Source of the DNA: a virus
Lineage: Duplodnaviria > Heunggongvirae > Uroviricota > Caudoviricetes
IMG/VR virus record: IMGVR_UViG_2671180430_000008
Strand: one strand, 5' to 3'
Length of the DNA: 4,252 bases
Shown in pieces: positions 1 to 4,252 of the stretch. The translations under genes and the position numbers were made by a program. The notes under the pieces were generated by a model that worked only from the letters and a program-made list of their open reading frames with translations, did not search any database and was not told where the DNA came from. Numbering within the stretch: position 1 is the stretch's first letter; every line of letters starts with the position of its first letter.

Positions 1-2
1 AT

Positions 3-50
3 ATTGAAGAAGCATGGGCTGAGCGGCAGTTAAAAAAGGTAACTAGGTAA
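3..50 (+). CDS. 3' end of an upstream CDS running off the left edge; by position possibly the C-terminus of a Q-like late antiterminator
   Basis: Open frame from the window edge (...IEEAWAERQLKKVTR*) stopping at 48-50, just upstream of a pR'-like promoter. Frame is ambiguous: another frame stops at 31-33. Too short to identify. Confidence 0.25.
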   Translation: MEEAWAERQLKKVTR

Positions 51-55
51 CAAGG

Positions 56-83
56 TTGATTTTTCCGGAATCTGTGGTAAATT
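56..83 (+). promoter_or_regulatory. pR'-like late promoter (-35 TTGATT 56-61, 16-nt spacer, extended -10 TGgTAAATT 75-83)
   Basis: Good sigma70 match. The segment 76-98 (ggtaaattcgtcataacgatggg) closely resembles the lambda pR'/qut region as I recall it (GGTAAATTTGACTCAACGATGGG). A terminator follows about 50 nt downstream, as with lambda 6S RNA. Confidence 0.55.
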
Positions 84-130
84 CGTCATAACGATGGGCG
101 TTTTATGCCTGACGTTAGAAGAGTTTCTAC

Positions 131-154
131 AACCCGCCGCCGAGCGGGTTTTTT
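131..154 (+). terminator. tR'-like rho-independent terminator
   Basis: Stem aacccgc (131-137) / gcgggtt (144-150), 6-nt loop, T-run 149-154. Lies downstream of the pR'-like promoter. Confidence 0.7.
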
Positions 155-274
155 ATGACTGAAATCGCGTCAGTACAGTAAACGCGCTGGTGGCGGTGAA
201 TACCTGTCTTTCAGCTTGCTGGCTTTTTCGACAAGAGTTATTGGTGTGTCACGTTAACCGGAAAAGGAAAAGAC

Positions 275-472
275 ATGCTAAAACAGCAGGATATGACAGA
301 AACCGCCAGAGTGGTGTTTAATGAATTAAGCGTTACCGAACCGGCGACAGTCGGGGAGATAGCGCAGAATACTTACCTTTCACGCGAACGCTGCCAGTTA
401 ATACTGACCCAGCTGGTTATGGCGGGTCTGGCAGACTATCAGTTCGGTTGTTACAGACGCCTTCCGCAGTGA
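275..472 (+). CDS. Small (65 aa) winged-helix/HTH-like DNA-binding protein, function unknown (PapI/FaeA-like pattern is a guess)
   Basis: Shine-Dalgarno AAGGA at 264-268, 6 nt before ATG 275. Segment TVGEIAQNTYLSRERCQLILTQLVMAGL looks like a helix-turn-helix. Uses rare AGA and ATA codons matching the downstream tRNAs. Stop codon lies inside the terminator hairpin. Confidence 0.55.
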   Translation: MLKQQDMTETARVVFNELSVTEPATVGEIAQNTYLSRERCQLILTQLVMAGLADYQFGCYRRLPQ

Positions 473-482
473 AGGCTTTTTT
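459..482 (+). terminator. Rho-independent terminator overlapping the stop of the 65-aa ORF
   Basis: Stem gccttc (459-464) / gaaggc (471-476), loop cgcagt, T-run 477-482. Confidence 0.6.
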
Positions 483-500
483 ATTTGTGGTAAATGGGCG

Positions 501-529
501 GCTGGTGGGTGTTAGGGGCACCCACCAGC
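501..529 (+). promoter_or_regulatory. Perfect 11-bp inverted repeat (stem-loop or operator-like site) in the leader of the methyltransferase gene
   Basis: gctggtgggtg (501-511) and cacccaccagc (519-529) are exact reverse complements, 7-nt spacer, no T-run after. Further hairpins at 572-590 and 595-613 precede ATG 623. Confidence 0.4.
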
Positions 530-622
530 CATCTGCTCATGCGTTGGGTTCACAAGCAAACCTCAGGCCCACTGCTTTGCGCAAAAGCAGAATGAGCCTA
601 TCAGAGACAGGCTTAATGATCC

Positions 623-1681
623 ATGCTTAATACTGTAAAAATATCCAGTTGTGAGTTAATCAACGCCGACTGCCTGGAATTTATCCGGTCGTTACCCGAA
701 AATTCTGTTGACCTGATAGTCACGGACCCGCCGTACTTTAAAGTGAAGCCTGAGGGCTGGGATAACCAGTGGAAGGGCGACGATGATTACCTGAAGTGGC
801 TGGACCAGTGTCTGGCGCAGTTCTGGCGGGTGCTGAAACCTGCCGGAAGTCTTTACCTGTTCTGTGGTCATCGCCTGGCATCTGATATCGAAATCATGAT
901 GCGTGAACGCTTCAGTGTGCTGAACCATATTATCTGGGCGAAGCCGTCCGGACGCTGGAACGGATGCAACAAGGAAAGCCTGCGGGCGTATTTCCCCGCC
1001 ACAGAGCGCATTCTGTTCGCGGAACATTATCAGGGGCCGTATCGTCCGAAAGATGCCGGGTATGCGGCGAAGGGCAGTGCACTGAAACAGCATGTGATGG
1101 CCCCGCTGATTTCTTACTTTCGTGATGCGCGAGCTGCCCTGGGGATAACGGCAAAACAGATTGCAGATGCCACAGGAAAGAAAAACATGGTGTCGCACTG
1201 GTTCAGTGCCGGTCAGTGGCAGTTGCCGAATGAAAGCGATTATCTGAAATTACAGGCGCTGTTTGCCCGGGTGGCAGAAGAGAAGCATCGGCGTGGTGAA
1301 CTGGAAAAGCTCCACCACCAGCTGGTGGATACGTATACCTCACTGAACCGGCAGTATGCGGAGCTGCTGAGTGAATATAAACATCTGCGGCGGTATTTTG
1401 GCGTGACGGTGCAGGTGCCGTATACCGATGTGTGGACGCATAAACCGGTGCAGTTCTATCCCGGGAAACATCCGTGCGAAAAACCGGCAGAAATGCTGCA
1501 GCAGATAATCAGCGCTAGCAGTCGTCCGGGTGACCTGATTGCAGATTTTTTCATGGGGTTGGGTTCGACAGTGAAAGCGGCACTGGCGCTCGGGCGTCGT
1601 GCAATTGGCGTTGAGCTGGAGACTGAACGTTTTGAGCAGACGGTTCGGGAAGTACAGGATTTAGTCAGCCAGAACGGATGA
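623..1681 (+). CDS. Beta-class DNA methyltransferase (N6-adenine type by DPPY motif; N4/N6 MTase family), apparently orphan
   Basis: 352-aa ORF. Catalytic motif IV DPPY at aa 35-38 (nt 725-736) after LPENSVDLIVT; AdoMet motif I DFFMGLGST at aa 308-316 (nt 1544-1570). Order IV...TRD...I is the beta-class arrangement, unlike Dam. No endonuclease gene nearby. Weak SD. Confidence 0.88.
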   Translation: MLNTVKISSCELINADCLEFIRSLPENSVDLIVTDPPYFKVKPEGWDNQWKGDDDYLKWLDQCLAQFWRVLKPAGSLYLFCGHRLASDIEIMMRERFSVLNHIIWAKPSGRWNGCNKESLRAYFPATERILFAEHYQGPYRPKDAGYAAKGSALKQHVMAPLISYFRDARAALGITAKQIADATGKKNMVSHWFSAGQWQLPNESDYLKLQALFARVAEEKHRRGELEKLHHQLVDTYTSLNRQYAELLSEYKHLRRYFGVTVQVPYTDVWTHKPVQFYPGKHPCEKPAEMLQQIISASSRPGDLIADFFMGLGSTVKAALALGRRAIGVELETERFEQTVREVQDLVSQNG

Positions 1682-1721
1682 TATTGAAGAATTAATTACG
1701 CGTCGTTATTATGCGGCTCCC

Positions 1722-1797
1722 GGCCCTTTAGCTCAGTGGTGAGAGCGAGCGACTCATAATCGCCAGGTCGCTGGTTCAAATCCAGCAAGGGCCACCA
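1722..1797 (+). tRNA. ileZ: tRNA-Ile2 (anticodon CAU, read as lysidine-CAU decoding AUA); formally could be elongator tRNA-Met
   Basis: Manual cloverleaf: acceptor ggccctt/aagggcc, D-arm gctc...gagc, anticodon loop ctCATaa, T-arm gctgg-ttcaaat-ccagc, discriminator A, encoded CCA. G1-C72 so not initiator. Near-identical in outline to E. coli ileX as recalled. ileZ symbol by analogy to Stx phages. Confidence 0.85.
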
Positions 1798-1804
1798 TCA
1801 CATA

Positions 1805-1881
1805 CCGCCATTAGCTCATCAGGAAAGAGCGCCAGCCTTCGAAGCTGGCTGCGCGGGGTTCAAGTCCCCGATGGCGGTCCA
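1805..1881 (+). tRNA. tRNA-Arg (anticodon UCG)
   Basis: Manual cloverleaf: acceptor ccgccat/atggcgg, D-arm gctc...gagc with A20, anticodon stem ccagc/gctgg, loop ctTCGaa (C35 present), T-arm cgggg-ttcaagt-ccccg, discriminator U, encoded CCA. This Arg isoacceptor is not in the E. coli K-12 chromosomal set as far as I recall. Confidence 0.75.
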
Positions 1882-1894
1882 TTATCTGCATCAT

Positions 1895-1971
1895 GCGTTG
1901 TTAGCTCAGCCGGACAGAGCAATTGCCTTCTAAGCAATCGGTCACTGGTTCGAATCCAGTACAACGCGCCA
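1895..1971 (+). tRNA. tRNA-Arg (anticodon UCU, decodes AGA)
   Basis: Manual cloverleaf: acceptor gcgttgt/acaacgc, D-arm gctc...gagc with A20, anticodon stem attgc/gcaat, loop ctTCTaa, T-arm actgg-ttcgaat-ccagt, discriminator G, encoded CCA. Confidence 0.88.
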
Positions 1972-1985
1972 CACTTATTTTCCCT

Positions 1986-2011
1986 GGCTCGCTTTTGCGG
2001 GCCTTTTTTTT
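1986..2011 (+). terminator. Rho-independent terminator after the tRNA cluster
   Basis: Stem ggctcgc (1986-1992) / gcgggcc (1997-2003) with one G-U pair, loop tttt, then 8 T (2004-2011). Confidence 0.75.
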
Positions 2012-2458
2012 AAATGTCTCACAATTCAGACGGTTGACAGTTGTCTGTTTTGCGGGGAGTTTGTTAAAAGAAACTGGCATGGTGAATCCCCCTGTGCGGA
2101 GGGGCAATCAGCGAGTAGGTATATGGGATAATCGCGGATTCAGGTGCTGGTACTGAATTCACCGGGAGGCACCCGGCATCATGCAATGGCACATAGCGCC
2201 ACTCTCCAGCCCTCTCCGGAGGGGCTTTTCTGTGCCGGATACATCACAGTTTCTGGAACCTTAGGTACTACAGTATCAGTCAGGGTGCTATATTTTCAGA
2301 TGTGATGAAAGCCTGTCAGCAGGCAGGGCGTATCGGAAATGACCCAGTAGAGAAAACGTTGACTCAGATACCGGTGCTGAGTTACCGGGAAACCGGCATC
2401 ACATGACCGCTATCCTGAGGTGTACTGGCAATAGCGGACACTACCATTTGTTCTTTTT

Positions 2459-3277
2459 TTAAGCAGCCATCTGATGATATTTTTCCCTGAAGGCTGCCGG
2501 GGAGATATTCCCCAGACGAGAGTGACGACGCTGACGATTGTAGAAAATCTCAATGTATTCCCGTATTACTGAGATGGCTTCATCCCGGTTATTAAAACGA
2601 TAGTGGCTCAGGCTCTCATTTTTCAGCGTTCCCCAGAAGCTTTCCATCGGAGCGTTGTCGTAACAGTTACCTTTACGCGACATTGATGTTTTCAGACCAG
2701 ACTGCTCCTGTATGACCCGGTAATCGTATGCGCAGTACTGTGAACCTCGATCAGAGTGGTGGATTAGCCCGGCAGGTGGGCGCTGGCTCCTGAGCGCCAT
2801 AAACAGGGCTTTACCTGTCAGCTCTTTTGTCATGCGCTCTCCCATGGCGTAGCCGACAATTTCGCACGTATAAACATCTTTGATGCCAGCGAGGTACAAC
2901 CATCCCTCCTGTGTGGCAACATACGTCAGGTCCGCCACCCAGACCTGATTTGGTGCTGTAGGAGCGAACGTCTGGTTCAGCAGATTTGGCGCAACTGGCA
3001 GATTGTGGTTCGAGTTCGTAGTCGCTCTGAACTTGCGTTTCTGCTTACAGCGTAGCCTTAGCTCCTTACGAAGACGTGCCAGTCGGTCACGACCAACGAT
3101 GATGCCATTCTCTGCCAGCTCCGTCTGGAGCCGCCGGGTTCCATATGTTTCGCGAGTGCGGATATGTGCCACCTTAATCTCCAGTTTTAGCCGCTCATCA
3201 CTTTGTTTTCTGTCTGAGGGTTCATGCTGTACCCAGTTGTAATAACCGCTCCTGGATACACCAAATACCTGACACAT
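2459..3277 (-). CDS. IS3-family transposase OrfB (DDE integrase/catalytic core)
   Basis: 272 aa from first Met. DDE-type segments WVADLTYV, HHSDRGSQY, CYDNAPMESF. N-terminal region EAMCQVFGVSRSGYYNW matches the IS3-family OrfB pattern. Normally expressed as an OrfAB fusion by -1 frameshift. Confidence 0.9.
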   Translation of the reverse strand: MCQVFGVSRSGYYNWVQHEPSDRKQSDERLKLEIKVAHIRTRETYGTRRLQTELAENGIIVGRDRLARLRKELRLRCKQKRKFRATTNSNHNLPVAPNLLNQTFAPTAPNQVWVADLTYVATQEGWLYLAGIKDVYTCEIVGYAMGERMTKELTGKALFMALRSQRPPAGLIHHSDRGSQYCAYDYRVIQEQSGLKTSMSRKGNCYDNAPMESFWGTLKNESLSHYRFNNRDEAISVIREYIEIFYNRQRRHSRLGNISPAAFREKYHQMAA

Positions 3278-3312
3278 CGCTTCAATGGGAAATTGTTGTC
3301 GCCATTGTTCGA

Positions 3313-3438
3313 TTAACGCGTATTTTTCAGCGACTCCTGTGCAAAATACGCTGTTGCTTTTTTTAATATATCTCGCTCAAGGCGAGCTTCATTTAACGCC
3401 TTACGAAAACTCCGGAGGGGCTGTTTATATTGATTTTG
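3313..3438 (-). pseudogene. Remnant of IS3-family orfA (C-terminal ~41 codons only)
   Basis: Minus-strand frame reads QNQYKQPLRSFRKALNEARLERDILKKATAYFAQESLKNTR*, stop at 3313-3315. An in-frame TGA lies at 3439-3441; no HTH-encoding N-terminal part follows. Confidence 0.6.
3358..3366 (-). other. Programmed -1 frameshift slippery site (A-run followed by G) at the orfA/orfB overlap of the IS
   Basis: Minus strand reads TTA AAA AAA GCA in the orfA frame (T7 at 3358-3364 on plus). OrfB lies in the -1 frame relative to orfA. Confidence 0.55.
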
Positions 3439-3454
3439 TCAGATGTGAGTAAAC

Positions 3455-3488
3455 TCCTTATGGACTTTGTTGTTTTAGTCCATAAGGA
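3455..3488. repeat. Perfect 11-bp inverted repeat with 12-nt spacer
   Basis: tccttatggac (3455-3465) and gtccataagga (3478-3488) are exact reverse complements. Overlaps the stop codon of the 111-aa ORF and lies about 15-50 bp from the IS truncation point. Confidence 0.45.
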
Positions 3489-3793
3489 CATATTTGCAGA
3501 GTGCAACGGTTATTAAAGCATTCATTCAATACGTTATCTGTATTTGTAGGGCATTCCTGGCTATTTTTGATTGAATTCCAGAATGTTTTATTGAATGGTA
3601 CTACGTTGTAAATGGTTACAGGTAGCACTTTGTTATTGAGCATGATGCCTGTGTGAGTCAGTGTAAATATACTTTCAGGAGGTAAGAAAGCATCCGATTG
3701 ATACCAGATTATTAATTTTATTTTACTCCATATGACTGAAAAAGATATTCCGCATGATGGCTGGATAACTGTATCAATCACAATCCACTTCAT
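3458..3793 (-). CDS. Hypothetical protein, 111 aa, in the AT-rich island; unknown function, possibly the N-terminal fragment of a larger gene cut by the IS-associated deletion
   Basis: ATG at 3793 with Shine-Dalgarno AGGAAA (plus 3798-3803) and a sigma70-like promoter upstream. Trp-rich N-terminal half; four Cys at C89/C100/C105/C110. Its 3' end abuts the IS deletion junction. No family recognised. Confidence 0.45.
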
Positions 3794-3833
3794 TTAGTTT
3801 CCTTGTTTATGCCTTGCTGGTGATGTTCTGAAA

Positions 3834-3860
3834 AGTATAAATGATATTTTTGAATGTAAA
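3834..3860 (-). promoter_or_regulatory. Candidate sigma70 promoter for the 111-aa ORF (-35 TTTACA, -10 TATACT on minus strand)
   Basis: Minus strand -35 is plus 3855-3860 (tgtaaa), -10 is plus 3834-3839 (agtata). Spacer is 15 nt (short). The -10 lies about 40 nt upstream of the ATG. Confidence 0.3.
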
Positions 3861-4053
3861 CCATAGAGCAGAATTATTTTTCTGATGTTGTTTATTGTTT
3901 ATTTAAATGCAGGGTGGTTTATATCTCGTCTTGTAGTTTATCCATGCATATCTGCTTGATAATCAGGTTTTTATTTAAGGTATGGTTTTGTGTTTTTTCT
4001 GTATTACATGTCAGGTATTTTAAAGAATTATTTTTCAGATGGTGGAAAGAACC

Positions 4054-4180
4054 ATGGCATTTAAACACTATGATGTTGTCAGGGCGGCGCCGCCGTCAGA
4101 TCTTGCGGAAAAGCTGACACATAAACTGAAAGAGGGCTGGCAGCCGTTTGGTAGTCCGGTGGCCATAACCCCTTATACCC
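4054..4180 (+). pseudogene. 5' portion of a small phage gene (DUF1737-like, recalled from memory) interrupted by IS insertion
   Basis: Start ATG 4054 with GGAAAG-type SD (alternative ATG 4039 has none). Encodes MAFKHYDVVRAAPPSDLAEKLTHKLKEGWQPFGSPVAITPYT, then the frame runs directly into the IS terminus at 4181. Confidence 0.55.
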
Positions 4181-4252
4181 TGAGGTGTACTGGCAATAGC
4201 GGACACTACCATTTGTTCTTTTTTTAAGCAGCCATCTGATGATATTTTTCCC
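4181..4252 (-). mobile_element. Right end of a second IS3-family (IS600-like) copy, same orientation as the first, continuing past the window
   Basis: 4181-4252 is 72/72 identical to 2416-2487. Flanking 3 bp are ccc here and tcc at copy 1, so these are independent insertions. Confidence 0.85.

Follow-up and report, generated by a model that had tools for sequence, protein, structure and literature searches.

A complete iraL anti-adaptor gene as lambdoid prophage cargo beside a truncated IS600

The closest described relative of the gene examined here is iraL, which was named in E. coli CFT073 by Hryckowian et al. (mBio 2014; PMC4045071) and has been described in this uropathogenic strain and in Shigella sonnei (PMC4045071). 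Two-hybrid and co-purification experiments with the CFT073 protein showed that IraL binds RssB; it does so only at RssB's N-terminal domain. Deletion of iraL shortened sigma-S half-life roughly two-fold in CFT073 and lowered log-phase sigma-S in S. sonnei (PMC4045071). The same study mapped the mRNA start of iraL by 5'-RACE, found IraL to be active in unstressed log phase, reported that matches to iraL and iraM do not overlap, and gave an identity of 58.9% between IraL and IraM (PMC4045071). For IraM, a structure in complex with RssB is available (PDB 8TWD, IraM residues 1-78), in which IraM contacts RssB via three residue clusters; the C-terminal tail was removed from this construct and was called less conserved and flexible (PMC10844676). 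The iraL gene has been found more frequently among Shigella, prostatitis and uropathogenic isolates than among commensal ones.

We examined a stretch of viral DNA of 4,252 nucleotides (IMG/VR record IMGVR_UViG_2671180430_000008, Caudoviricetes), hereafter the window. The original prediction had singled out a minus-strand open reading frame (ORF) of 111 codons as an orphan, probably truncated at its C-terminus, and as a candidate for an uncharacterised cargo function. We are highly confident that this ORF is instead a complete iraL gene equipped with its own promoter, which lambdoid prophages in E. coli and Shigella carry as cargo.

Identity and promoter of the gene

The features of the gene and its immediate flanks are as follows.

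3458..3793, minus strand: iraL coding sequence, 111 aa plus TAA stop, S74 allele, assigned by the NF007393 match and the CFT073 alignment
3455..3488, minus strand: 12-bp perfect stem with a 10-nt loop, over the last five iraL codons and the stop, from a repeat search and folding
3794..3826, minus strand: iraL 5'UTR, starting at 3826, with the Shine-Dalgarno sequence AAGGAA at 3804-3799
3827..3862, minus strand: iraL sigma-70 promoter region, its position inferred from the mapped transcription start

The ORF listing returned an ATG-initiated minus-strand frame of 111 aa (3458-3793), whose translation is identical to the protein sequence quoted earlier. This protein was matched by the curated NCBIfam family model NF007393, 'anti-adapter protein IraM', with 162 bits against a cutoff of 121 (E = 4.7e-48), and residues 1-110 of 111 were aligned with profile positions 1-113 of 114. 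Comparison with the IraL protein of CFT073 (WP_000871291.1, which is also annotated in E. coli 042; the CFT073 gene lies at 1343465-1343800) revealed 110 identical residues out of 111, with L74S as the sole amino acid difference. The two coding sequences shared 334 of 336 nucleotides (99.4%), the mismatches being located at 3563, which is synonymous, and at 3573, which gives L74S. For assignment to the iraL subtype, Hryckowian et al. require a nucleotide identity of 95% or more with CFT073 iraL along the full coding region, and the ORF lies well within this range. It falls far short of the corresponding 95% identity to K-12 iraM, as the flanks have diverged and the proteins are 61% identical, a value that agrees with the published 58.9% between IraL and IraM. 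The ORF is thus no orphan, being 99% identical to the experimentally studied IraL of CFT073. Judged by its sequence, the name that fits the gene is iraL, coding for an IraM-family RssB anti-adaptor in the S. sonnei S74 allele.

Megablast of positions 3300-4100 against complete E. coli genomes gave matches covering 80% or more of the query in 1380 genomes, where the products are annotated as 'anti-adapter protein IraM' and, after it, 'DUF1737 domain-containing protein'. The NCBI label is therefore 'IraM', whereas sequence and promoter place the gene in the IraL subtype, which gives the assignment its value for annotation. As iraL is an already known and characterised gene and ordinary prophage cargo, the earlier view of an uncharacterised cargo function was right about cargo, the gene being a moron of a lambdoid prophage, and wrong about uncharacterised.

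Searches with the protein also returned PDB 8TWD (E = 6e-31). The current Pfam release gave no significant family for the ORF, the best match being Nairovirus NSm at E = 0.056, and it was NCBIfam that proved informative. The PmrD family PF11183 did not match the ORF protein at E<=1, and it matched one of 48 family members, with E = 0.0032. Unlike current Pfam-A, a precomputed table assigns PF11183 (PmrD) to the exact ORF protein; we took this entry to derive from an older model.

The published 5'-RACE sequence of iraL, ACATCACCAGCAAGGCATAAACAAGGAAAC, matched the window at 30 of 30 nucleotides and at a single site, 3826 to 3797 on the minus strand (chance expectation, 0 matches), which puts the transcription start at 3826. 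Upstream of it are a TATACT -10 element at 3839-3834 and a -35-like element, TTTACA/GTTTAC, at about 3861-3855. Ahead of the coding sequence, the window differs from CFT073 only at 3796 (-3 of the ATG) and at 3827 (-1 of the transcription start). The consensus promoter and terminator scan missed the mapped iraL promoter and called no terminator. The original prediction of a promoter of its own was nonetheless borne out, since the exact match to the published start identifies a sigma-70 promoter, and so was that of a good ribosome binding site, AAGGAA standing 5 nt ahead of the ATG. Upstream of the coding sequences, iraL and iraM give a poor alignment.

Prophage context, the IS600 junction and the S74 allele

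Around iraL, the following features were recognised.

2414..3405, minus strand: IS600 fragment, from the IS3-like element IS600 annotation, with rve and HTH_21 domains
3406..3422, no strand: junction between IS600 and the native iraL 3' flank; the junction lies at 3406-3409 and 3410-3422 is an STnc100 remnant
4054..4180, plus strand: 5' end of a nanS-p-like SASA esterase gene (DUF1737, E = 1.5e-15), divergent from iraL
4181..4252, minus strand: right end of another IS600 copy, oriented like the first; the repeat starts at about 4179-4181

In CFT073, 042 and EC0026B, the gene order is Q - tRNAs - DUF3927 - iraL (minus strand) - DUF1737/SASA esterase - holin - lysozyme. With its optional parts, the cargo slot reads Q - (DNA methyltransferase) - tRNAs - DUF3927/STnc100 - iraL (minus strand) - nanS-p-type esterase - holin - lysozyme, so that iraL, encoded on the strand opposite to the phage late genes, has the Q/tRNA module on one side and the nanS-p/lysis module on the other. 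The window carries the end of a Q-type antiterminator gene (1-156), the tRNA cluster and the 5' end of nanS-p. The DUF1737 ORF represents the first 40-odd codons of a nanS-p-like SASA 9-O-acetylesterase gene, which when intact encodes 617-618 aa; here the gene is cut by the second IS600, at the site that is also interrupted in S. sonnei chromosomes.

Several other elements were observed in this region. A 65-aa ORF with weak winged-helix matches (275-472, plus strand) stands ahead of a gene for a 352-aa N6/N4 DNA methyltransferase (623-1681, plus strand; PF01555, E = 8e-42), both in the interval from Q to the tRNAs. Some iraL prophages, such as that of EC0026B, carry the methyltransferase, and those of CFT073 and 042 do not. 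The tRNA at 1722-1797 (plus strand) was called tRNA-Met (CAT) by ARAGORN, as against tRNA-Ile for the homologous gene in RefSeq; we take it to be of the ileZ type, reading Ile after lysidine modification. It is followed by tRNA-Arg(TCG) and tRNA-Arg(TCT), and such a trio of rare-codon tRNAs is typical of the Q-to-lysis region in lambdoid and Stx phages. A full-length STnc100 sRNA (Rfam RF02076, 123.6 bits against a gathering score of 47) is located at 2048-2237 on the plus strand. IS-free genomes have a second, similar STnc100 copy in convergent orientation to iraL, the end of which is about 50 bp beyond the iraL stop. Regarding the K-12 locus, iraM was placed on the e14 prophage in the IraL paper (PMC4045071); in the RefSeq table, iraM (1211680-1212003) is found past the icdC pseudogene and just outside e14, whose end is given as 1211412. 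DUF1737 was considered for ycgX, near K-12 iraM, and rejected; because ycgX is DUF1398, we claim no shared synteny with K-12.

The insertion sequence was identified as IS600 by annotation, and IS629 was rejected. The fragment at 2414-3405 retains the right end and an intact orfB and is without about 272 bp of the left end, so that both the left inverted repeat and some 70 orfA codons are missing; its 992 bp are identical to a full IS600 in an iraL-carrying S. sonnei prophage. The second copy repeats the first exactly, 4179-4252 being identical to 2414-2487. The IS600 match ends at 3405 and identity to E. coli 042 begins at 3410, which puts the junction 49-52 bp beyond the iraL stop and not at the roughly 20 bp first estimated. 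What survives of the deleted, convergent STnc100-like copy is the 3' arm of its terminator hairpin, at positions 3410-3422.

Positions 1-3405 were found to be 99.97% identical to an S. sonnei prophage that has the methylase and a full IS600 and is without iraL, and positions 3410-4252 were 100% identical to another S. sonnei prophage, which carries iraL; in CP104423.1 these two loci are about 0.67 Mb apart. By these alignments, the window is a composite of the two S. sonnei prophage loci, joined inside IS600 at 3405/3410. With the join, about 272 bp of the left end of the IS were lost, as was the STnc100-like copy normally found downstream of iraL in convergent orientation, and because of this IS600-internal junction the downstream flank of iraL differs from all reference genomes. 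A 41-mer across the exact IS600/iraL junction was absent from the GTDB species representatives, IMG/VR and the JGI metagenomes; no complete E. coli genome spanned the junction, and the 55-aa ORF running across it was not on record. The junction could reflect either a rearrangement specific to the strain or an artefact of assembly.

The changed flank and the one substitution allow for a reading in which the coding sequence is intact and this particular copy is nevertheless functionally altered or silent. L74S, at window position 3573 (codon 74), is the only amino acid change relative to CFT073 IraL. L74 is kept in CFT073 IraL and in K-12 IraM, sits on the C-terminal helix and adjoins residue 75, an RssB-contact position in IraM, so its replacement might weaken folding or RssB binding. 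With the STnc100 copy gone together with its terminator, there might also be an effect on the 3' end of iraL, on its stability or on transcription in antisense, given that the left arm of the downstream hairpin has been replaced by IS600 sequence and that read-through from iraL would enter IS600 orfA'/orfB on the same strand. Against both forms of this reading, 4016 blocks of the contig collection list the S74 allele, and all chromosomes examined that carried it were from S. sonnei; the exact S74 protein is encoded in S. sonnei chromosomes including 53G (HE616528.1). The S. sonnei strain in which deletion of iraL lowers sigma-S (PMC4045071) is likely to have carried the S74 allele. As promoter, ribosome binding site and 3' stem-loop are also intact, we consider an altered or silent copy unlikely.

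Fold, RssB contacts and the 3' end

AlphaFold2 run on a 48-sequence alignment gave a model of IraL with a pLDDT of 88 (89-96 over residues 1-80) and a pTM of 0.80; the single-sequence prediction was unusable (pLDDT 46.5). The model comprises a predicted PmrD-like beta-barrel-plus-helix domain (residues 1-78), which is followed by a conserved tail with four cysteines. The best Foldseek match was IraM in 8TWD chain A (TM 0.92, rmsd 1.1 Å over 78 columns, 64% identity), and the PmrD structures 4HN7, 2JSO and 2RQX came next. The Trp-rich, beta-strand-like N-terminal half that had been foreseen from the letters was recovered, with Trp at 3, 22, 30 and 72 and a beta-rich N-terminal half in the model.

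Given that family and fold are shared with IraM and that NCBI annotates the gene as 'IraM', an IraM-type rather than an IraL-type anti-adaptor, induced in a PhoP-dependent manner on Mg2+ starvation and binding both RssB domains, has to be weighed. The RssB contacts of IraM provide one means of doing so. In 8TWD, the receiver domain of RssB is contacted by I4, I6, W22, K26 and I42 of IraM, and its C-terminal domain and linker by T13, C14, F18, W30 and L75 together with I61, Y62, H63 and I64 (PMC10844676). All five receiver-domain contacts are identical in the IraL protein described here, while five of the nine C-terminal-domain/linker contacts are, the changes being T13S, L75I, H63N and I64V. 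This partial divergence, which speaks to some degree against an IraM-type protein, fits the published binding of IraL to the RssB N-terminal domain only. An IraM-type anti-adaptor is further opposed by 61% identity to K-12 IraM against 99% to IraL, by a promoter and 5'UTR that are those of iraL, with upstream regions of iraL and iraM that align poorly, and by the published separation of the two, whose matches do not overlap and of which IraL acts in unstressed log phase on the RssB N-terminal domain only (PMC4045071). We therefore regard this alternative as very unlikely and retain the IraL assignment.

The tail is the sole part of the finding with residual novelty. The original prediction had correctly noticed four C-terminal cysteines, but had placed them at 89, 100, 105 and 110; the true positions are C81, C92, C97 and C102, and a further cysteine, C14, is found near the N-terminus. 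Across 28 full-length relatives at 24-61% identity, the invariant columns were M1, P12, W72, C81, C97, C102 and P103, with C92 nearly so. All four cysteines were kept in 38 of 48 representatives, and the ten others include eight that match the N-terminal domain only. The usual spacing is C-x10-C-x5-C-x4-C within CPGN...CPYG; the ORF itself has C81, C92, C97, C102 and P103 and ends soon after CP(Y/F)G. These cysteines are thus among the most conserved positions of the family in our alignments, in contrast to the 'less conserved' tail of the structure paper. The tail was modelled with pLDDT values of 75-82. Comparison of a tail profile with the PDB gave nothing significant (the best match was a defensin at E = 0.37, with a faint resemblance to a CCCH zinc finger at E>1), and the literature searched contained no mention of zinc or cysteines for IraM/IraL. 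Because the cysteines are conserved family-wide, the suggestion of a metal or disulfide motif is a reasonable one. That the tail, CP-x9-C-x4/5-C-x4-CPYG, might be an ordered metal-binding or redox-sensitive module controlling the stability or activity of the anti-adaptor is a tentative proposal, to which we give clearly less than even weight; if true, such a tail would add an extra input to the control of RpoS proteolysis.

At the 3' end, the stop codon was confirmed to lie inside a perfect inverted repeat: the two 12-nt arms are at 3455-3466 and 3477-3488, and the TAA is at 3458-3460. The stem was present in both the MFE and the centroid fold of 3400-3500 (101 nt; -19.4 and -18.5 kcal/mol, respectively, z = -2.5). 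No U-tract follows this stem-loop and the scan called no terminator, for which reason we claim no terminator role for it. Its loop and 3' arm encode QQSP, the four residues by which the C-terminus is longer than that of IraM. The stem-loop is specific to iraL, being identical in the IS-free E. coli 042 and absent from K-12 iraM; the repeat, taken earlier as a hint of truncation, belongs to the native 3' end of the gene and was not created by the IS junction.

These observations bear on the earlier suggestion that a longer gene lost its 3' part in an IS-associated deletion and that the ORF is what remains of its N-terminal region. Such a reading draws on the stop codon lying within an inverted repeat and about 50 bp from the IS600-internal junction. 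Yet the stop codon, the stem-loop and 48 bp past the stop are base-for-base identical in the IS-free 042, and CFT073 has zero differences in the same 48-bp downstream flank. In IS-free genomes the encoded and annotated protein likewise comprises these 111 aa, the 107-aa IraM of K-12 ends in ...CPYGLK, and a Citrobacter homologue has 109 aa. An exhaustive HMMER search of 1.84 billion representatives revealed a small family, with 71 matches at E<=1e-3 and 33 at E<=1e-10. The 48 family representatives are 107-166 aa in length and end 2-36 residues after CPYG, compared with six in the ORF, and the NF007393 model is matched end to end. As homologues end at the same place, which was the outcome named beforehand as speaking against truncation, we judge the remnant reading highly improbable and already refuted, and the gene to be complete.

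A chance ORF without a product in AT-rich intergenic DNA is the least probable reading of all, as the AT-rich surroundings, the lack of a significant Pfam match and the promoter missed by the consensus scan are outweighed by the curated NF007393 match (E = 4.7e-48), a homologue with a crystal structure (8TWD), the retention of W3, P12, W30, Y31, W72 and the four cysteines in homologues of 24-61% identity, and published genetics and biochemistry for a 99%-identical protein (PMC4045071), and it is already refuted by this conservation pattern and these experiments.

Proposed function and comparison with known systems

By analogy with the 99%-identical CFT073 protein, we propose that IraL would be made during exponential growth from its own sigma-70 promoter and would bind the N-terminal receiver domain of the ClpXP adaptor RssB. 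With RssB blocked by IraL, sigma-S (RpoS) would no longer be handed to ClpXP; the stabilised RpoS would then turn the general stress regulon partly on even without stress. IraL raises RpoS in growing cells that are not under stress. Identity, completeness, fold, promoter sequence and context were established on the window itself, whereas RssB binding and RpoS stabilisation are taken from the literature, and it is from the latter that we infer expression and activity of this copy.

CFT073 IraL is the nearest of the known systems. It shares with the window 110 of 111 residues and 334 of 336 nucleotides, the length, the 5'UTR, the mapped start and the -10 element, and it occupies the same prophage slot, between Q/tRNA and nanS-p/holin on the opposite strand. 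The window differs from it by L74S, the S. sonnei allele, and by single-base changes at 3827 and 3796; furthermore, the convergent STnc100-like copy has been replaced by a truncated IS600 and nanS-p is cut by a second IS600.

K-12 IraM (b1160, 107 aa; 8TWD) shares the family HMM and the PmrD-like fold (TM 0.92, rmsd 1.1 Å), an identical cluster of RssB receiver-domain contacts, the four C-terminal cysteines and CPYGLK. Identity is 61% overall, with 50 of 78 positions in the core and 15 of 29 in the tail, and the protein encoded in the window has the additional C-terminal QQSP and a promoter region of its own. Induction of IraM depends on PhoP/Mg2+ starvation, and its binding extends to both domains of RssB; IraL, in contrast, is active in log phase without stress and targets the N-terminal domain.

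PmrD (4HN7, 2JSO, 2RQX) has the same unusual beta-barrel-plus-helix fold (Foldseek TM 0.67-0.73) and is likewise a small protein that binds the receiver domain of a response regulator. It is, however, only 16-20% identical to the IraL protein described here, is without the four-cysteine tail and targets PmrA rather than RssB.
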